From a virus, in IMG/VR virus record IMGVR_UViG_3300013137_000011, positions 1-64,000 of that record: 64,000 nucleotides of DNA. One strand, written 5' to 3'. Position numbers and translations under genes: made by a program. Positions 351-36,995 of this stretch are shown here, one piece after another. Each line of letters begins with the position of its first letter. Within the stretch, counting starts at the first letter, position 1. The notes under the pieces were generated by a model. The model was not told where the DNA came from and ran no database searches. It saw nothing but the letters and a program-made list of their open reading frames with translations.

Positions 351-394
351 AAAGCCGTAGGATCATGATTTATATCATGGTTCTGCGGCTTTTA
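351..394 (+). terminator. intrinsic terminator
   Basis: AAAGCCGTAGGATCATGAT / ATCATGGTTCTGCGGCTTT long stem with G-U pairs, then a T run. Confidence 0.75.
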
Positions 395-468
395 TTCTGT
401 ACCAGGATACCTGGCTGATGAGTTCTTAAAATAGAACGAAACAGAAAATCAATTTAAGGAGTGATACT

Positions 469-2014: not shown

Positions 2015-4156
2015 ATGAAAATATTTTATATCAACAATAGATTCGAAGCAGAAAGCAAGTATGAAGAGAAGTCAATCTTAAATGAGGCAAGATGGGCATG
2101 GGATCCTGCTTTGAAAGTTTGGTTCGCCTTAAAGCATGATAAACTTGTTACTCTTCGTGATTTACGAAGGACAAGTTATCAACATATTGACATCAGACTT
2201 TCAGAATCTGCTGTCAATGAGTTGAAACTCAGATTAAAAGACGAAGAGTCGAAAAAGGAAAAGATAGAAGCAAGTAGATTCGATGGATCTGGTATACATT
2301 TTGATTTTCCAAGACCAGATGGATTAGAATACTTGCCATTTCAGATGGCAGGTATAAATGCCATGAAAGATATGGACAGAATACTTTTATCCGACGAGAT
2401 GGGATTGGGCAAAACTATCCAATCAATTGGTATCATTAATATTCACAAACCTGATCGTGTATTAGTGGTTTGTCCTGCTTCCCTGAAGTTTAATTGGAGA
2501 AATGAGTTCAAAACTTGGCTTGTAGATGAGTATGATATGATCATAGTTAATGGTGAATTTAGGATGCCTAATTCTAATAAATTCATCATCATAATTAACT
2601 ATGAAATGATTCAAAAATATTACAAGACTCTTATGTGTTTTGGACAATTCGATCTTATCGTTTGCGACGAAGCACATTATATGAAAAATCCTAAAGCTCA
2701 GAGAACAAGACTAATCTTAGGTGGAAGATTCAAATTTGATGATCAAGAAAAACCAGAAAAGATATCTGGTATTTCAGCAATTTGCAAAAATAGGATGTAT
2801 TTAACAGGTACTCCTATTCTTAATCGGCCTGTTGAGTTGTGGCCCATTATCCATAATCTAGCGCCAAAAGAGTTTCCTAACTATTTCTCTTATGTTAAAA
2901 GATACTGTAAAGCCACTAGAGACAGATTTGGATGGGATGTTAAAGGTGCTAGTAATCTTGATGAATTTCAAAAAAAACTTAGGGCTTCTGTTATGATAAG
3001 AAGACTAAAGAAGGATGTTCTCAAAGAACTGAAAGGAAAGCGTAGACAAGTTATCGAATTAAGTAGACCTTCTGGAATTGCTTCTATTATTGAAGAGGAG
3101 AAAAAACTTTTTGATCTATACATGGCAGAGAAAGATCAGATAAAAGCCATATTGGACGAAAATTCTGATGAAGAGAATCTTGAAGAAGAGTATAAAAATA
3201 AGATATACAAACTAAGAGAAGCGTCTAAAATCGCCTTCTCTGAAATGGCAAGGATAAGAAAAGAACTTGCAATAAAGAAAATACCACAAGCACTATCTTT
3301 TATAGAGGATATTCTTGACAATGAAGAAAAGATAGTAGTATTCTACCATCATCATGAAGTTGGAGATGCTATAAAAGCCAAGTTTGGTGATATTGTAACA
3401 GGTTTTGATGGGAGACTAGTAGACAAAGAAGAAAGAATAAATCGTGTAGATAAATTTCAGAACGATCCTAATATCAAAATATTCGCAGGTAGTATAGGAG
3501 CAGCAGGAGTTGGAATTACTCTAACATCTGCTGCTACTGTTATTTTCGTTGAACTTGATTGGACTCCTGGAAAGATGAGTCAGGCAGAAGACAGGCTTGA
3601 CAGGATTGGACAAGTAAATCTCGTGCTTGTTATTCATCTTGTATTCGAGGAATCACTTGACTGTAAAATTGCAAAGACTATTATCTCTAAACAAGAGATA
3701 ATAGAAAAAGCATTAGATGTAAATGTAGATAATACTAGTATAGGAACATCTGTTTTGAGCGATGTTAAAAATTCGGTACAAGTTTCACTAGTAGATAAAT
3801 TAAAAGACGCAGTAAATAACACTACACCTATCCCAGATGTAGTGGTTAATCTTGAACCTGAAAAACCCGAACCAAAGCAACAAGAAGACATTTGGGATGA
3901 TAGTGTTTCTGCTAAATTTGTACTAATAGCATTACAGAAATTAGCAGGAGTTTGTAATTATGCTCTAACTCATGATGGCAGAGGATTTAATAAACCTGAT
4001 GCTAATTTTGGGCATGAATTAGCAAAAAGATCAAGACTAACAAAAAGGCAGGTAATTGCTGCAAAATCAATGCTGAAGAAATATCACGGACAGATTGATC
4101 CTGGAGATTGGTACTTAATATATGACTATAAGGAGGATATCAATAATAATGGCTAG
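2015..4156 (+). CDS. SNF2-family (SMARCAL1/HARP-like) helicase/ATPase
   Basis: SDEMGLGKT, VVCPASL, DEAH, LTGTP, GVGITLT, QAEDRLDRIGQ motifs. Confidence 0.95.
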   Translation: MKIFYINNRFEAESKYEEKSILNEARWAWDPALKVWFALKHDKLVTLRDLRRTSYQHIDIRLSESAVNELKLRLKDEESKKEKIEASRFDGSGIHFDFPRPDGLEYLPFQMAGINAMKDMDRILLSDEMGLGKTIQSIGIINIHKPDRVLVVCPASLKFNWRNEFKTWLVDEYDMIIVNGEFRMPNSNKFIIIINYEMIQKYYKTLMCFGQFDLIVCDEAHYMKNPKAQRTRLILGGRFKFDDQEKPEKISGISAICKNRMYLTGTPILNRPVELWPIIHNLAPKEFPNYFSYVKRYCKATRDRFGWDVKGASNLDEFQKKLRASVMIRRLKKDVLKELKGKRRQVIELSRPSGIASIIEEEKKLFDLYMAEKDQIKAILDENSDEENLEEEYKNKIYKLREASKIAFSEMARIRKELAIKKIPQALSFIEDILDNEEKIVVFYHHHEVGDAIKAKFGDIVTGFDGRLVDKEERINRVDKFQNDPNIKIFAGSIGAAGVGITLTSAATVIFVELDWTPGKMSQAEDRLDRIGQVNLVLVIHLVFEESLDCKIAKTIISKQEIIEKALDVNVDNTSIGTSVLSDVKNSVQVSLVDKLKDAVNNTTPIPDVVVNLEPEKPEPKQQEDIWDDSVSAKFVLIALQKLAGVCNYALTHDGRGFNKPDANFGHELAKRSRLTKRQVIAAKSMLKKYHGQIDPGDWYLIYDYKEDINNNG

Positions 4157-4812: not shown

Positions 4813-6750
4813 ATGTACTTAGAATATATAGTTGAGGACGGGCTTCGGGTTGGAGTAAAAATCAATATGTTCAAGAATGAACAGGAAGCACGAAAAAAAT
4901 CACATCCAACATCCGATGATCAAGCATTTATTCTTTCAAAATATCAAAAATGGCATGACGGGTCACTATACAGTATGTCATTTAGATATGACAATGGAAA
5001 AATCGAATATGAACTTATAGATATATTATTGAGCATATCTAAATATGAATCAAAAATAAATATGATCTTTCAGATTCTTCCAAAAAATATAGTAGATGGA
5101 ATACATCCATTTACAAGTCTAAATAAAAATAAACAGAAAAAGGGCGGTATACCGAAGTTTGTAATGAGTCAGATGTTAGAATCGGCAGAACATGTAGCAT
5201 TTAATATCATTTATAATGACATGATCGATTCATACAAAAAGGCGAAGAATCCAATGCAAATCCATACCAACGTATCCATTGCTTTCAGGAACAAGGCTCT
5301 AAGAATAATTAATGGAATGATCAATAATATCATTTCTGATATTGGAGATAAATACTCAAGAATCAAACAATCAAGGAGATTCAACCCTAATCGAAGAAAA
5401 TTGGTATATGATCTTTTCTATAAAGATATAAAGTTTGAGCAGTTGACTGATTCATGTCCATATCTGTTATTTTATATGACAGATATTTATATGACAGATA
5501 ATGGTATGCAGGATGTAAACTTCGTTAATGAAAAACTCGAAACACTTTCATCTGATATATTGTCTGGGAAAAGATTGAAATTGATTCTTGATTCTTATGG
5601 AATTCCAAGATTTGTGTCTAAAATCCATAATCCCCAAATGGCTTGGATTATGTATAAAGCCTTGCAAGGACAAGGTAGTAAAATCATAAGAGGTTCAATC
5701 GAAAATCATAAGGGATTTGTTCCAGAAAAAAATAAACGTAAGTATCTCAGATCATTGGTTATGTTAAGAGATTTCATAAATGGTAATGGAGTATTTTATA
5801 ATGGAGATGAACAAAAATATTTAGAAAATATGTATGAATGGATAGGAAATATAATTATTACATATTATATTTCTGGATCCTCAGATGGAATACAAATGAT
5901 TCCTAAAGAAAATAATAATCATTCATCATGCATGATACTACCAAATGACGCCAGATTCTTCAGCAAACTAGAAAATATGAAAGATTGGATAAAGTGTTGC
6001 CATAAAGCAAACGTCTTTGAGATAAATGGAAATATCGGATTAAGAAGACGAGAAGTAATGGAAATTGGATGCTTAACTGCTAGATTCAATAAAGACATGA
6101 GTTTTATGACGGCAGTAAGACTATCTAACGATTGGCACCATAATATCATAAATCTTACGTATACTATAGATAAAGATCCAATTAACTTTCCAGAACCCTG
6201 GCTCCCTGCTGATACGTTCAGAACACAAAGATTTCGAAATATTGATATCAATACGAATGATATCAGAACAGAAGACGCAGATCCAATAATAACAGAATAT
6301 GCAATAATACCAATTGAAACATCTCTAGACTTAATAGAAGAAGGAAAAGGGATGCATCATTGTGTTGGAACATACATTGATACTGTGAATAATGGTAAAT
6401 CATACATCTATTCAATACGAAAAATAGATGATGAGTCTAGAGTTGCTACTCTTGAGTTAAGAAAACGCAAAAGTATATATAGTGAAGTAGAAAAAAAGAT
6501 AGTAGAGATACCAGAAACAATTTCTATTTCTCAGTTGCGTGGGATTTGTAATGAAGCGATTAACAAAGATATAGAAATTCAAATACAAAATTGGATTTCT
6601 AAATGGGATAAAAAACAAAAGGAGGAAAAGGACAATGCCAACGAAGGAAAGGATTGCGAAGATGAAGGAAAAGGGATTGAAGAAAATGGAGGTGGATACG
6701 AAGAAGAAGAAATCAACGAAGAAGGAAGATGCGACGCCGTTGGAGCGTAA
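4813..6750 (+). CDS. PcfJ-domain protein
   Basis: C-terminal L..EG..MHHCVGTY...IYSIR...RVATLEL and QLRG..N motifs; acidic tail. Confidence 0.8.
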   Translation: MYLEYIVEDGLRVGVKINMFKNEQEARKKSHPTSDDQAFILSKYQKWHDGSLYSMSFRYDNGKIEYELIDILLSISKYESKINMIFQILPKNIVDGIHPFTSLNKNKQKKGGIPKFVMSQMLESAEHVAFNIIYNDMIDSYKKAKNPMQIHTNVSIAFRNKALRIINGMINNIISDIGDKYSRIKQSRRFNPNRRKLVYDLFYKDIKFEQLTDSCPYLLFYMTDIYMTDNGMQDVNFVNEKLETLSSDILSGKRLKLILDSYGIPRFVSKIHNPQMAWIMYKALQGQGSKIIRGSIENHKGFVPEKNKRKYLRSLVMLRDFINGNGVFYNGDEQKYLENMYEWIGNIIITYYISGSSDGIQMIPKENNNHSSCMILPNDARFFSKLENMKDWIKCCHKANVFEINGNIGLRRREVMEIGCLTARFNKDMSFMTAVRLSNDWHHNIINLTYTIDKDPINFPEPWLPADTFRTQRFRNIDINTNDIRTEDADPIITEYAIIPIETSLDLIEEGKGMHHCVGTYIDTVNNGKSYIYSIRKIDDESRVATLELRKRKSIYSEVEKKIVEIPETISISQLRGICNEAINKDIEIQIQNWISKWDKKQKEEKDNANEGKDCEDEGKGIEENGGGYEEEEINEEGRCDAVGA

Positions 6751-6928
6751 GTACTACTTTGTTTCATGGCTTGCAGGTATGTCTCCTGGTCAGAGCGTGA
6801 TGGATTCTAATCCTCTTTTGAGGAATGAATTCATCTCTGGACAGCTAAAGTTGAATTTTATGTGCGAAATCGGAAAGGAGGTATATGATGCTTGGGATGT
6901 ATATGATTCTTTGATAGATAGTATCTAA
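6635..6928 (+). CDS. hypothetical protein with basic N-terminus
   Basis: AAGGAGG SD upstream; overlaps the acidic tail of the PcfJ gene. Confidence 0.6.
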   Translation: MPTKERIAKMKEKGLKKMEVDTKKKKSTKKEDATPLERKYYFVSWLAGMSPGQSVMDSNPLLRNEFISGQLKLNFMCEIGKEVYDAWDVYDSLIDSI

Positions 6929-6940
6929 CTATCACCAATT

Positions 6941-7041
6941 TCTCACAGTTAGAATCGGGAGACTATAGCGAACATCGCTAATATTAAGCATTAAAAATCT
7001 ATTAAAGTCTCATCGGGGGGTGGGGATGAGGCACTGTGAGA
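6941..7041 (+). ncRNA. putative structured ncRNA, G-rich loop element copy 1
   Basis: TCTCACAGT/ACTGTGAGA closing helix; GTCTCATC/GATGAGGC hairpin with loop GGGGGGTGGG. Confidence 0.6.
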
Positions 7042-7109
7042 TATGGAAAATTAAAACAAAATACAGTATAGTAAGTGTATATGATTTAAAAACCAACAAA
7101 CTGAATGAA

Positions 7110-7215
7110 TCCTGGTTCAAAATGGGTAAGAATAGTCAATGCGACTTTATTTAAAATTTTTGAACTAAGTATGTAGATTAAATCCAGAATGGAGGGTGGG
7201 ATTCTGGAGCCAGGA
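7110..7215 (+). ncRNA. putative structured ncRNA, G-rich loop element copy 2
   Basis: TCCTGGT/GCCAGGA closing helix; TCCAGAAT/ATTCTGGA hairpin with loop GGAGGGTGGG. Confidence 0.6.
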
Positions 7216-7221
7216 AAAGAT

Positions 7222-7293
7222 AGATCCGTAGCCAAGTGGTAAGGCAGGAGACTTTGGATCTCCCATTCGTAGGTTCAAATCCTACCGGATCTG
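7222..7293 (+). tRNA. tRNA-Gln(TTG)
   Basis: AGATCCG/CGGATCT acceptor, GGAGA-CTTTGGA-TCTCC anticodon arm, GGTTCAAATCC T arm; no encoded CCA. Confidence 0.95.
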
Positions 7294-7301
7294 ATAAACT
7301 A

Positions 7302-7384
7302 GCCGAGATGATGGAATGGCAGACATTTCTGACTTAAAATCAGATGGGAGATATCCCGTGCGGGTTCAAGTCCCGCTCTCGGCA
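7302..7384 (+). tRNA. tRNA-Leu(TAA)
   Basis: GCCGAGA/TCTCGGC acceptor, TCTGA-CTTAAAA-TCAGA anticodon arm, long variable arm, GGTTCAAGTCC, A73. Confidence 0.95.
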
Positions 7385-7408
7385 AGATAAAATCAAAAGG
7401 AGAATAAA

Positions 7409-7792
7409 ATGAAAATAGAAATCAAAGATCCAGAAAAGTGCAAGATTACAGATTACTCTCTATGCGAAACCGACGGTGGAATAAACGGTTTTCCAATATT
7501 TTACTTAAATATATCCTCAGAGTTTAAGAGGTTATGTTTATCTTGCTCTGGTCATTCTGGAGATGGAGAAGAATCGTCATTCTTTATTTCAGAGTGCGAA
7601 AATGACAATCATGATCTTTGTTCTGAAATAGTTGTAACAAAAACGGATCTTAGTCGTAGTTATAATGATAGTTGTAATATTATTTGTTCGTATGAGTTCA
7701 TGACGATAGATTCAAGATATGGAATTGAAGTATATTTAATTCCTATCGTATGGCCTATCAAACATCTTGAAAAAATTGGAGGAAAAGAATAA
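7409..7792 (+). CDS. hypothetical protein
   Basis: ORF with AAGGAG SD. Confidence 0.6.
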   Translation: MKIEIKDPEKCKITDYSLCETDGGINGFPIFYLNISSEFKRLCLSCSGHSGDGEESSFFISECENDNHDLCSEIVVTKTDLSRSYNDSCNIICSYEFMTIDSRYGIEVYLIPIVWPIKHLEKIGGKE

Positions 7793-8009
7793 TGAATATA
7801 AAAATAAATCCAAAAGCAAAAGCAGCATTAACAAAACTAATCAGAAATAATATGGACAAATTGTTTCTTTTTGGATTTGGAAGAACATATTCATTGAAAT
7901 GTAATATTTCAGTATTATCTGAAAAAATACTGGAATATATCATTAAAAAAGCAGATGAAGAAGGAATTAGTTTCTTCTTTACTAATAAAAACTGGAGGTA
8001 GATGTAATA

Positions 8010-9086
8010 ATGGAAATGTTAGAAGTTGATGGAGTTGGCGATGTTAATCCGGTAGTAGAAGTTAAACCTTTCGAGATGCAAGAAAAAAAGCATATGATTC
8101 CAATTGAGGATTGGATCATGGATTATGCTAGACAAGCCGGAAATACCGTACATGAATCTGGAATAGAAATGATTGACCTTGCAGGTACAGGTTATATCAT
8201 GAACAACAGGATTAAGAGGGCTCTTAATCAGGCGATTAAACTGAAGAAGGGCCTTTTTCTTAGGGGGAAGCCTGGATGTGGAAAAACTGAAGTAGCAAAT
8301 TCACTCTGGAAAGCCTGTGGAGGACGTATCGAAATTGATAGTTTCGGTAATGAAATTCATCACGGACCAAAGTTTGTAAAGATTATTTGTAATCCTGACA
8401 TTGATTCTGAGAAGAAACTTGTAGGAGAATGGGATATCCAGAACCAGATGGTTCAATTAGAAATCATGAGAAGCATGATTAATGTAGGGGTTTCAGTAGA
8501 GGGAATAAAAAGAGAACTTTACTCAGAGAGGTTTCTCATTAAACGTGGCATAATAGAGGCTCTGACGGCTCCAGAAGGAGCGATCCTGCTCATAGACGAA
8601 GCAGACAAGTCCAGGAGGGTAGAGTCCTTCCTATTGGAGTTTTTGGACAAGTGGCGGGTGAGCATCCCACAGATGGGTGAGATAAAAGCATTGAAGATTC
8701 CTATGGTTATTATCACGGCAAATAGAGCCCGTGAATTTTCTGAAGAATTTCACAGAAGATGTGTTTTTGTTCCTATCAATTATCCAGATATTGACACTGA
8801 GATTAAGATTTTACACTCAAGATTGCCTAATATCAGAAAGAAAATTGCTGAACAAATATCAAGTATTATGAGTATTATTAGAAATAGGGAAGTTGACTTC
8901 AGATATACTCCTGGTACTAGTTCAGCATTAGATTGGGCTCAAATTCTTATAGAGATGAATATCGAGAGTATCAAAAGAGAGCAGTTGATTCTCGATGCTC
9001 AAATTATCATGAAGCACGAGGATGATATGACGATGCTTGAAAACATAAGTTATGATATTCAAAATAAAGTTGGACTGGAGGATTAG
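8010..9086 (+). CDS. MoxR-family AAA+ ATPase (CoxD-like)
   Basis: Walker A GKPGCGKT, Walker B LLIDEADK, ESFLLEFL, ITANRAREFSEEFHRRC. Confidence 0.9.
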   Translation: MEMLEVDGVGDVNPVVEVKPFEMQEKKHMIPIEDWIMDYARQAGNTVHESGIEMIDLAGTGYIMNNRIKRALNQAIKLKKGLFLRGKPGCGKTEVANSLWKACGGRIEIDSFGNEIHHGPKFVKIICNPDIDSEKKLVGEWDIQNQMVQLEIMRSMINVGVSVEGIKRELYSERFLIKRGIIEALTAPEGAILLIDEADKSRRVESFLLEFLDKWRVSIPQMGEIKALKIPMVIITANRAREFSEEFHRRCVFVPINYPDIDTEIKILHSRLPNIRKKIAEQISSIMSIIRNREVDFRYTPGTSSALDWAQILIEMNIESIKREQLILDAQIIMKHEDDMTMLENISYDIQNKVGLED

Positions 9087-9761: not shown

Positions 9762-11486
9762 ATGCTTTATAATATCAATGATTATTTTGATAAACTTCAG
9801 ATATCTGGTATTGACATTCCAATTGGAATGAGGCTTGAGGCTTTCAAAGCAATAGATATTATGGGTTCTTTTTGTTTTGAAAAAGATACTTCAGCAGAAG
9901 TTTGGAAAAATCTTATGGATGATATATTTTCTGCTATTGCAATTCGTGAGAAAGACGAACTTATAGCAAAAATGATATTCATAAAGCACTTTAGAGTAGG
10001 AGACTACTCTAATTTCATTTCTAAGAATGAAAATAAAATAATCTATTCTATGCGAAAAAACAGCAAAAAAGAAGAATCTATTTCGCATGAAACAATAGAT
10101 AATAGTAGAGTTGTTTTAAATTTTGGTAATATAAAAACAGAAGCATCTGATAAAATTGAAGATTCTTATCATCAAATAGAAGAAGATAAAAAAGATAATG
10201 ATGATCAAAATACTCAACTTAAACAAAATGCAAACGATAACTATAGTATTTTCGATGAAATAGATGAAATGATAGAAGATGAGGAGTTTGATTTTGGTAA
10301 AAATGACGACGATGCAATAGCAGATGATGACGAAATCGAAGCATTTAATAACGGAGAAGTAGAAGATTTAGACGATATAGAAAAATTTGCAAATAGCATA
10401 TCTGGCTTCAAAGAAGCACTTGAAAAACTCTCTGAAAGTGGATATGATATTGACACTAAAGAGTCTGCAGATGAAATATCAAATGAAATATATAATATTG
10501 CAGCATCTATAAGAGTTGAGTTTTACGGTAAAAAGAATAAAAAAAGGCGTGAAGAGTTATTTGATTGTTTGAATATAGTTAAAAGACATAAAATAGATGA
10601 GGAAAAAATAGAAAGAGAAATCATAGGAGAAACTATAAAAGAGATAAACAAAAAAGAACTTAAACAAGAACTAAATAATGGAAATAACAACGATCCTGGA
10701 ATACAATATATAAGTATATCCAGAATACCTGAAAGCAAATTGATAATTGAGATAGAAAGAATTGCCAATGAGATTGTAACAGATAGATCAAGAGATATTT
10801 TTGTTGCTGAGTCTGGTACTGAAATAGATTTGTTTGATACAGTCACCGAAAGCTTGTCAAATTTGAGAGGTGTAATATCAAACATTTATTTTTATAAGAA
10901 AGATAAGGGAAAAGCAAGAATTCTTGCAATATGTGACTTATCTGGAAGCATGAGGAGATATATTAATATATCACTGAATCTAATGCTAAATATGAGAAAA
11001 GTACTAGATGACGTTCAAATAACGGCATTTAGCAGTAATGATACAATATTAACAGAAAACGTATTTAAAAACCAAGATATATCATGCAAAAATTGGAAAA
11101 AAGTATTCCAATCAATATTCAATATAGTATCCATAAGGGGTACTTCATTAGTCACTCATCTTGAGAACGTAAAAAATTGGGCTGAAAGTGGTAGATTAAA
11201 TATAGATGAAGAGACTATTGTTCTTCTAATTTCTGATATGTTAGCAACAGATGTAAATATGTATTACGAAGAACAATACTATTGCAAAGAACAATACTAT
11301 TACAAAGAAATTGCATCAAAAATAGTTCCGATCAAAAATATGTGTAAAGAAATAATAATACTGTCACCAAATGAATATAACCAAAACTTCAATAATCTTG
11401 AAAATTATAGAAAAAAACTTGGCATAAGATATGCTACAATTGACACAATCAACCAATTAAGAACAGCAATTTCATCAATAGTTTAG
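9762..11486 (+). CDS. VWA-domain protein (CoxE-like MoxR partner)
   Basis: MIDAS motif CDLSGSM, RGTSL, VLLISD; long acidic linker; near MoxR. Confidence 0.85.
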   Translation: MLYNINDYFDKLQISGIDIPIGMRLEAFKAIDIMGSFCFEKDTSAEVWKNLMDDIFSAIAIREKDELIAKMIFIKHFRVGDYSNFISKNENKIIYSMRKNSKKEESISHETIDNSRVVLNFGNIKTEASDKIEDSYHQIEEDKKDNDDQNTQLKQNANDNYSIFDEIDEMIEDEEFDFGKNDDDAIADDDEIEAFNNGEVEDLDDIEKFANSISGFKEALEKLSESGYDIDTKESADEISNEIYNIAASIRVEFYGKKNKKRREELFDCLNIVKRHKIDEEKIEREIIGETIKEINKKELKQELNNGNNNDPGIQYISISRIPESKLIIEIERIANEIVTDRSRDIFVAESGTEIDLFDTVTESLSNLRGVISNIYFYKKDKGKARILAICDLSGSMRRYINISLNLMLNMRKVLDDVQITAFSSNDTILTENVFKNQDISCKNWKKVFQSIFNIVSIRGTSLVTHLENVKNWAESGRLNIDEETIVLLISDMLATDVNMYYEEQYYCKEQYYYKEIASKIVPIKNMCKEIIILSPNEYNQNFNNLENYRKKLGIRYATIDTINQLRTAISSIV

Positions 11487-22220: not shown

Positions 22221-22726
22221 ATTTTATGGGATTTGATATTGGATGGAATCAAATAGCATTTTCAGTAATAGATGAAAATGAAAAACTAATCTATTATAAT
22301 ATGCATTGTTACGAAGAACCAATACTTCATAATATTTTTGAAAAATGCTTAAATCTTATAGATAGATTTAATCCTACAGTAGTAGGAGTGGAGTGTCCAT
22401 TTGGAAGAAATCCAAAAGCTCTAATCATGCTTTCAGAAGTTAAAGGATCGATAAGATTAGCATGTCAGGAAAGAGAACGAATCTGTGTAGACATGACTCC
22501 AAATCAAGCAAGAGCCATGACTGGAAAAATTGCAAATTCAGATAAAGATAGAAAGAAGAAAGTTATAGAAAATACAAATAGGTACTACAAAGAAAAGAAT
22601 AAAAACTTTCCGTGGTTTGATAAATTAGATACAGAAAACGAACATATAGCGGATTCGGTAAATGTAGCATTGTATACTCTTAACATAGCAAAAAAAGAAT
22701 TAGGAAGTATATTCAAATGTCAATAA
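22217..22726 (+). CDS. ruvC: RuvC-like Holliday junction resolvase
   Basis: MGFDIG, VGVE, L.EVKG.I, HIADS catalytic pattern. Confidence 0.8.
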   Translation: MNFMGFDIGWNQIAFSVIDENEKLIYYNMHCYEEPILHNIFEKCLNLIDRFNPTVVGVECPFGRNPKALIMLSEVKGSIRLACQERERICVDMTPNQARAMTGKIANSDKDRKKKVIENTNRYYKEKNKNFPWFDKLDTENEHIADSVNVALYTLNIAKKELGSIFKCQ

Positions 22727-36866: not shown

Positions 36867-36995
36867 ACGACCAATGTTTATCAACAATTTCATGTATCCC
36901 TAGACTTAGGGAATCTGTAGCAATTTTGTTGATAAGGTTTTGGAACCTTCTCGAAGGAGGGAGGCTGGAGGTCTTGTCCGGTCTTTCTCTTCGGT
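36812..36995 (-). ncRNA. putative promoter-driven sRNA with a CCUCC-rich segment
   Basis: Consensus promoter upstream, no convincing ORF, two long hairpins, ends in a terminator-like stem. Confidence 0.55.

Follow-up and report, generated by a model that had tools for sequence, protein, structure and literature searches.

The 64,000-nucleotide (nt) stretch of DNA analysed here, referred to as the window, is the first 64 kb of the 78.8-kb IMG/VR virus record IMGVR_UViG_3300013137_000011, which has a CheckV completeness of about 60%. Directly upstream of two transfer RNA (tRNA) genes this phage carries two elements, E1 and E2, which, as judged from their sequences, are clearly diverged paralogues of one structured RNA domain of ~100 nt, the fold of which is maintained by selection. 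Both elements lie in a gene-free gap of 480 nt (6929–7408) in the + strand early arm of the genome, between an open reading frame (ORF) and the downstream ORFs. The order within the gap is E1 (6941–7041), an A-rich spacer of 68 nt, E2 (7110–7215), a spacer of 5 nt, tRNA-Gln and tRNA-Leu.

Architecture of the two elements

E1 and E2 were aligned end to end with MAFFT (alignment A1), and a covariance model (R1) was built from both copies. The features defined by folding and alignment were the following:

6941–7041, + strand: E1, copy 1 of the structured RNA (101 nt), from folding; 113 bits against R1, a model built from E1 and E2 themselves
7110–7215, + strand: E2, copy 2 of the structured RNA (106 nt), from folding; 115 bits against R1, again as one of the two sequences from which the model was built
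6941–6949 with 7033–7041, + strand: terminal helix of E1, 9 base pairs (bp), UCUCACAGU/ACUGUGAGA, from folding, alignment and RNAalifold
7110–7116 with 7209–7215, + strand: terminal helix of E2, 7 bp, UCCUGGU/GCCAGGA, with U-G as the innermost pair, from folding, alignment and RNAalifold
6950–6966, + strand: 5′ joiner of E1, 17 nt, with an invariant GGG at 6957–6959, from the MAFFT alignment
7117–7133, + strand: 5′ joiner of E2, 17 nt, with an invariant GGG at 7124–7126, from the MAFFT alignment
6967–6979, + strand: small inner hairpin of E1, AGCGA-ACA-UCGCU, from folding and alignment
7134–7146, + strand: small inner hairpin of E2, AGUC-AAUGC-GACU, from folding and alignment
7001–7006, + strand: single-stranded AUUAAA of E1, invariant in the MAFFT alignment
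7177–7182, + strand: AUUAAA of E2, conserved in the MAFFT alignment
7007–7014 with 7025–7032, + strand: G-loop hairpin of E1, 8-bp stem, loop at 7015–7024, GGGGGGTGGG as DNA and GGGGGGUGGG as RNA
7183–7190 with 7201–7208, + strand: G-loop hairpin of E2, 8-bp stem, loop at 7191–7200, GGAGGGTGGG as DNA and GGAGGGUGGG as RNA

An initial annotation, made from the letters of the DNA, had described in both elements a terminal helix, the sequence ATTAAA and an 8-bp hairpin with a 10-nt loop stacked directly on the terminal helix, and every one of these details is present in the sequence. In both copies no nucleotide separates the G-loop hairpin from the 3′ strand of the terminal helix. The interior, which the same annotation called variable, is in fact partly conserved: besides its variable portions it contains the joiner, which has the same length in E1 and E2 and the conserved pattern U..AA..GGG..A..AU, and the small inner hairpin. 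Four single-stranded motifs were kept in both copies, which are the GGG of the joiner, AUAG, AUUAAA and the G-rich loop. The consensus of the 10-nt loop is GGRGGGUGGG, with E1 and E2 one base apart, and a scan of both strands of the whole 78.8-kb record found GGGTGGG in no place other than these two loops.

Two other readings of this DNA were rejected. A 42-codon ORF at 7026–7154 (+) was dismissed as spurious, because half of E2 would then be coding and its counterpart in E1 would not; its start lies 5 nt past the G-run of the E1 loop, which could be a Shine–Dalgarno (SD) sequence, and its end is inside E2. A transposon or miniature inverted-repeat transposable element was also considered, but the terminal repeats differ between the copies and no target duplication was seen in the sequence.

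Folding and compensatory changes

The minimum free energy structure and the centroid structure both gave the described shape, with a folding energy of −28.5 kcal/mol for E1 (z −3.75 versus dinucleotide shuffles) and −26.6 kcal/mol for E2 (z −2.3 versus dinucleotide shuffles). Both domains also remained intact when the region 6915–7225 (311 nt; z −2.8) was folded as a whole.

The three helices correspond to 21 aligned pairs in A1, and standard pairs were found in all of the cells (40/40). Both sides had changed in 10 pairs, three of them in the terminal helix, two in the small inner hairpin and five in the G-loop hairpin, while two pairs were G-U in one copy and Watson–Crick in the other. When the 3′ partners were slid by 1–3 columns as a control, 38–45% of positions were paired and 0–1 compensatory pairs were obtained. 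RNAalifold, given the alignment alone, returned the same helices. Hence, the earlier proposal that the stems differ in sequence and still pair is borne out by these data, and the inner hairpin, with two of the 10 compensatory pairs, takes part in this covariation. Neutral drift after a duplication cannot account for ten double changes that left every pair intact, and the fold is therefore under selection, in agreement with the proposed structured RNA adjoining the tRNA genes on the + strand. The orientation itself had been argued from G-U pairs. On the minus strand two G-U pairs would read A-C, which is weak evidence; the + strand is upheld, with more force, by the tRNAs and all neighbouring genes, which share this strand.

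Compensatory change would also maintain DNA hairpins, and we considered whether the elements could act as single-stranded or cruciform DNA when replication starts, during packaging or in recombination. Good folds were likewise obtained for the minus strand (z −4.5 and −3.4), and single-stranded DNA of the same strand tolerates G-T wobble. We regard such a role as very improbable, because two pairs would be A-C on the opposite strand, because the elements are positioned in a transcribed gap abutting tRNA genes, because their single-stranded motifs and multi-helix junction are typical of RNA, and because the locus contains no iterons, AT-rich unwinding element or skew switch, the skew turning at about 37 kb.

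Comparison with known RNA families

The elements were compared with the Rfam 15 collection using cmscan, first at the gathering score and then, with permissive filters, at E ≤ 10. No family was found on E1 or E2 by either measure, consistent with the earlier view that this RNA is uncatalogued. The library works on this DNA, because it does find a type III hammerhead ribozyme at 394–447. ARAGORN detected no tRNA or transfer-messenger RNA (tmRNA) in E1 or E2, and only the two downstream genes were called:

7221–7294, + strand: tRNA-Gln(UUG), from ARAGORN; 67.7 bits with the Rfam tRNA model
7302–7384, + strand: tRNA-Leu(UAA), from ARAGORN; 58 bits with the Rfam tRNA model

The tRNA-Leu(UAA) gene has about 80% identity to tRNA-Leu of T4-like cyanophages in blastn. 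The models of the tRNA clan gave no match on 6941–7215 at E ≤ 10, so that the elements are not degraded tRNAs.

The outline of E1 and E2 recalls, nevertheless, a tRNA minihelix. A tRNA has a 7-nt T-loop (UUCRANY) on a 5-bp stem and a 12-bp acceptor/T stack. In E1 and E2, which are located in a tRNA operon, the 5′ and 3′ ends likewise pair in a terminal helix (7 bp in E2, like an acceptor stem), which abuts a 3′-proximal hairpin without a spacer. On the other hand, the stack is 17 bp long in E1 and 15 bp in E2 as compared to 12 bp, the loop has 10 nt and is G-rich, and there is no cloverleaf, D arm, anticodon arm or T-loop.

Self-cleaving ribozymes are another class to be weighed at this position. 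The hallmark of ribozymes similar to that of hepatitis delta virus (HDV) is a nested double pseudoknot (P1, P1.1, P2, P3, P4) with a catalytic C in J4/2, and theta ribozymes are double pseudoknots of ~55–60 nt. HDV-like theta ribozymes flank tRNAs in gut phages, and a part in the maturation of these tRNAs has been proposed for them (Kienbeck et al. 2024, PMC10879173); they cleave no more than about 5 nt away from the tRNA to which they belong (PMC10879173). E1 and E2 resemble them in being small structured RNAs right beside phage tRNA genes, while they differ in having a nested three-helix fold and in lying upstream of the tRNA, with the 5′ end of E2 111 nt away from tRNA-Gln. A descriptor of HDV topology returned one weak A/U-rich match in 6881–7420, on the + strand, where shuffles gave 1.3 on average, and none on the − strand. 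None of the models of HDV-like, hammerhead, twister, twister-sister, pistol and hatchet ribozymes matched E1 or E2 at E ≤ 10. The conserved helices are nested throughout, leaving no junction strand for a catalytic C. The proximity to tRNAs, which theta ribozymes are known to flank (PMC10879173), the acceptor/T-arm-like outline and the presence of a hammerhead elsewhere in the genome could all be explained if E1 and E2 had arisen from a tRNA- or tmRNA-like gene by decay, or if they were self-cleaving ribozymes trimming the precursor of the tRNAs. Given the lack of ARAGORN and Rfam matches, the chance-level result of the HDV-topology scan, the nested helices and a 10-nt G-rich loop in place of a 7-nt T-loop, such an origin is highly improbable; moreover, decay would not keep 21 of 21 pairs through 10 double changes.

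The Y RNAs (YrlA) that accompany Ro60/Rsr are ~100 nt long, closed by a stem of the 5′ and 3′ ends, carry a tRNA-like module and are sometimes encoded by phages (Chen et al. 2014, PMC4201824). E1 and E2 have the same length and the same type of closure, but the bulged Ro-binding site is missing from their terminal helix and no TROVE/Ro60 gene was identified. The Rfam Y RNA and YrlA models did not match E1 or E2 at E ≤ 10. The candidate partner for such a reading, a protein with a VWA domain (9762–11486), was rejected, because it matched only VWA_CoxE and no TROVE domain at E ≤ 1, and look-ups in the PDB and the ESM Atlas found no Ro60 for it.

Comparison with the small stable RNAs of T4 and with nut sites

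It has been known for ~50 years that phage tRNA clusters bear extra small stable RNAs, such as RNAC and RNAD of phage T4. Like E1 and E2, the T4 genes rnaD and rnaC encode two tandem non-tRNA RNAs of ~100–140 nt packed within a few nucleotides of a phage tRNA; rnaD is 1 nt from tRNA-Arg, and rnaC is 6 nt from rnaD. The T4 cluster opens with tRNA-Gln followed by tRNA-Leu (NC_000866, 72370–72530), which is the same order as at 7221–7384. RNAC is closed by a helix of its 5′ and 3′ ends, and the 3′ strand of this helix follows directly after a T-arm hairpin. There are also differences. The 3′ hairpin of RNAC is a canonical T-arm (5 bp, loop UUCGAAU), in contrast to the 8 bp and the 10-nt G-rich loop of E1 and E2; rnaC and rnaD follow a tRNA and are not paralogous to one another, while E1 and E2 are upstream and clearly paralogous; and RNAC and RNAD were detected experimentally, whereas E1 and E2 are known from the DNA sequence alone. 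When the T4 tRNA region was searched with R1 with filters off, the scores were at most 12 bits (E ≥ 0.5), indicating no homology to rnaC or rnaD. The parallel is an analogy only, because the two pairs are not homologous. E1 and E2 are best described as a variant, so far orphan, of the small RNAs in the tRNA cluster of T4, the roles of which are still unknown (PMC3014915; PMC9697503).

The position of the two elements within a one-strand operon could also be explained by a function in cis, either as processing or stability cassettes marking the 5′ boundary of the tRNA precursor, or as antitermination hairpins of the nut/put type, which RNA polymerase or a phage protein would recognize so that transcription continues across the tRNA genes and into the ORFs behind them. 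The end of E2 nearly abuts tRNA-Gln. A consensus scan of 6300–7900 found no terminator-like sites, and the count of promoter-like sites there was at or below that expected by chance from shuffles, so that the elements have no convincing promoter of their own. Another sign of transcript processing is the type III hammerhead ribozyme (RF00008) in the same arm, at 394–447 (+), which scored 52.3 bits against a gathering score of 48.5. It is situated in the gap 325–468 between the + strand ORFs 103–324 and 469–966, and a long hairpin at about 351–393 precedes it, as seen by eye. This hammerhead suggests self-cleavage of the early polycistronic transcript, and because it is located in another gap of the same arm, processing of the early arm at the RNA level is plausible.

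The comparison with antitermination sites rests on the arrangement of the motifs. The sites nutL and nutR are present as two copies per genome, each with a single-stranded box followed by a hairpin, and their loops differ by one base. E1 and E2 share with the lambdoid nut sites and with HK022 put the presence of two copies and a conserved box (AUUAAA) before a conserved-loop hairpin, and thus recall boxA and boxB of nutL and nutR. However, a nut site has a 5-bp stem and a 5-nt loop, without an enclosing helix or inner hairpin, and its two copies belong to separate promoters, while E1 and E2 are in tandem in one transcription unit. The closing helix, the joiner of fixed length and the inner hairpin exceed what a nut or RNase site needs, and the domain is self-contained like a released RNA, as the folding in the 311-nt context indicated. 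Additionally, no terminator that would have to be overridden was detected nearby (6300–7900), and no N-like protein is recognisable by sequence in this phage. Overall, we consider a role in cis possible, though the weight of these observations makes it somewhat unlikely.

Candidate partners of the G-rich loop

We think that the G-rich loop is a candidate docking site, because the decamer is near-invariant although the stems have diverged, and because GGGTGGG is unique to the two loops. The C-rich 3′ tail of the 16S ribosomal RNA (rRNA) could be its partner. The ribosome-binding sites of the phage are canonical, of AGGAGG type, with AGGA in 52 of 87 ORF leaders and GGAGG in 25 of the 87. The predicted energies of pairing of the loops with the anti-SD sequence ACCUCCUUA were −10.2 and −9.8 kcal/mol, as compared to a median of −6.8 kcal/mol for the phage's own leaders. 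These predictions are compatible with the function of an anti-SD decoy as a candidate, in an unspecific way. A G-quadruplex within the loop, which had also been suggested, is, by inspection of the sequence, unlikely to form, because the 8-bp stem closes the loop and four separated G tracts are missing within it.

A C-rich tract, CCUCCAGCCUCCCUCC, lies at 36953–36971 (−), in the gap where the gene arms converge. It can pair with the G-rich loops, though a dozen other sites match it in this, and it was rejected as a partner of the loops, since it ranked about 12th for E2 and outside the top 15 for E1.

The loop could alternatively be read by a protein, with E1 and E2 serving as an operator or a sponge for a phage or host protein, such as CsrA-like readers of GGA or another phage protein. 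Conservation of the loop together with covariation of the stems is the pattern seen in coat-protein, N-boxB and CsrA targets, and GGA is found at the border of loop and stem in both copies. The lack of an outstanding complementary RNA in the phage genome would also be consistent with a protein ligand. In contrast, no recognisable RNA-binding gene adjoins the elements, the neighbours being PcfJ-like, small ORFs, a MoxR-like ATPase and a CoxE-type VWA protein, the last of which has no Ro60/TROVE signal. The CsrB and RsmZ sponges have many GGA-loop hairpins per RNA, while E1 and E2 have one G-rich loop each, which gives two in the record. We consider such a protein-binding function rather unlikely.

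Search for homologues and transcripts

The collections searched were IMG/VR, JGI metagenomes, GTDB genomes, GenBank phages and the records of distant relatives. Kin of this phage are represented by P0009 and P0010, relatives of the MoxR-like ATPase encoded 0.8 kb downstream (78% and 52% identity, respectively), and by P0005, a relative of the terminase at 81% identity; the contigs encoding these three lay outside the collections. The pattern scans required exact ATTAAA and loop letters.

In IMG/VR the pattern ATTAAA-N8-GGRGGGTGGG gave 15 matches, with no hairpin among them. A pattern with a variable gap gave at least 119 matches in IMG/VR, and among the matches listed there was one hairpin (L134), which obtained no score with R1; it was rejected as a homologue, because it lies within a coding sequence that reads as a glycosyltransferase by a translated motif. 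In metagenome contigs the variable-gap pattern gave at least 113 matches, the best among those listed being L159 (Ga0315286_10077784, 3399–3520), with 27.6 bits. This match, located at a contig end, contains ATTAAA, an 8-bp stem of A and T only and a GGGGGGTGGG loop, and it has the word TCGGGAGA in common with the E1 joiner and TCCTGG in common with E2. It was not accepted as a homologue, because the score came mostly from the searched pattern, there is no enclosing helix, the topology is different and the fold has a z of −0.25. The contig itself is GC-rich and unrelated, with no protein in common with this phage, and the match is probably due to chance. Two stricter patterns gave 2 + 2 chance matches in the 185,579 species genomes of GTDB, one of them in a P-loop-like coding sequence (GKTGGGKT).

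A blastn comparison with 50,697 GenBank phages returned the tRNAs only, and at E ≤ 10 only noise matches. The covariance-model search foreseen in the initial annotation could be carried out with R1 and brought no relatives to light: on the whole of the phage's own record, 11 SNF2-linked distant viral records and 6 MoxR-linked genome loci it matched E1 and E2 only. The weakest match of R1 in the window was at 22301–22396 (+), with 13.8 bits and E of about 5, which is not significant; it consists of AUUUAA followed by a 6-bp hairpin, with no G-rich loop. Partial matches in DNA sequencing runs were identical short pieces or unrelated tRNAs, which carry no information on variation.

Genomic surroundings

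The phage DNA has a GC content of about 32%. The + strand carries every large ORF from 1 to 36.8 kb, and the turning point of the cumulative GC skew, at about 37 kb, coincides with the meeting of the two convergent arms. Upstream of the elements, a 645-amino-acid (aa) protein with a PcfJ-like domain (PF14284) is encoded at 4813–6750 (+), for which no relative except itself was found among 5.8 billion clustered proteins. A MoxR-like AAA+ ATPase (8010–9086, +) and the CoxE-type VWA protein (9762–11486, +, 574 aa) form a pair just downstream of the tRNAs, and the N-terminal 338 aa of the VWA protein gave no match. Nearly all large ORFs of the minus-strand arm that were tested (37.6–64 kb of the window and 62–78.8 kb of the record) had no PHROG or Pfam match. 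In the latter segment (L143), a 513-aa protein (L143:9106–10647) resembles the terminase large subunit by 23% tblastn similarity only, and a sigma-70 region-2 protein is encoded at L143:14728–15429. The phage lineage is barely sampled.

Discussion

To account for these observations we tentatively favour, without placing the odds on its side, the view that E1 and E2 are tRNA-linked small RNAs, which are excised along with the tRNAs, are stable, and display a G-rich decamer as a docking site. The two elements would be transcribed within a long + strand early transcript; a single transcript that is cut to free the tRNAs is suggested because the stretch from the upstream ORF through the elements and the tRNAs to the downstream ORFs contains no terminator-like site. 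In each domain the terminal helix would stack coaxially on the 3′-proximal hairpin, as in the acceptor/T-arm minihelix of tRNA and in T4 RNAC. Host tRNA-processing nucleases, by cuts of RNase P or RNase E and subsequent 3′ trimming, could free the elements along with the tRNAs. The cuts that free tRNA-Gln would also free E2, and similar cuts at the bases of the terminal helices would free both elements. Once released, they could persist as compact, exonuclease-resistant small stable RNAs, a scaffold that would show the G-rich decamer atop a stack of ~15–17 bp as a docking site for a C- or U-rich partner. The most concrete candidate for the partner would be the CCUCC anti-SD tail of 16S rRNA, while a C-rich host RNA or a loop-specific protein may equally serve in this role.

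Several observations weigh against this explanation. The covariation comes from two sequences in one genome, and is not equivalent to family-level covariation statistics. There is no homologue outside this genome among the searched collections, which means that none was reachable, and not that none exists. The runs that contain the locus are lake-water DNA only, with no RNA run listed. As to the release of the RNAs, the stack of 15–17 bp compared to 12 bp in tRNA, the lack of a T-loop and the lack of an encoded CCA mean that recognition by RNase P is not assured, and the 2-bp difference in the terminal helix between the copies argues against a strict molecular ruler. As to the proposed partner, the GGAGG core expected in an anti-SD decoy is lost from the E1 loop, the pairing energy is unspecific, as any G-rich loop pairs well with CCUCC, and no outstanding complementary site for the loops was found in the phage genome. 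A protein that reads the loop, or a role in cis in processing or antitermination, accounts for the data almost as well as excised tRNA-linked RNAs do.

A more specific version of the same idea is that E1 and E2 are "super-Shine-Dalgarno" decoys, in which the minihelix-like scaffold would let the tRNA-processing machinery of the host excise and stabilise the RNA, and the G-rich decamer on it would titrate the 16S anti-SD tail, or another C-rich host RNA, early in infection. We hold this version to be quite unlikely. If true, it would be a decoy for translation or host takeover encoded in a tRNA operon, and a new kind of phage small RNA.

E1 and E2 thus appear as an unrelated pair with the same placement and outline as those of T4, in a distant uncultured phage from a lake. 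This points to the tRNA-processing pathway as a route that phages may use recurrently to obtain small RNAs. The exposed 10-nt G-rich loop offers a simple experimental handle, and the identity of its partner could guide the work on the T4 RNAs.

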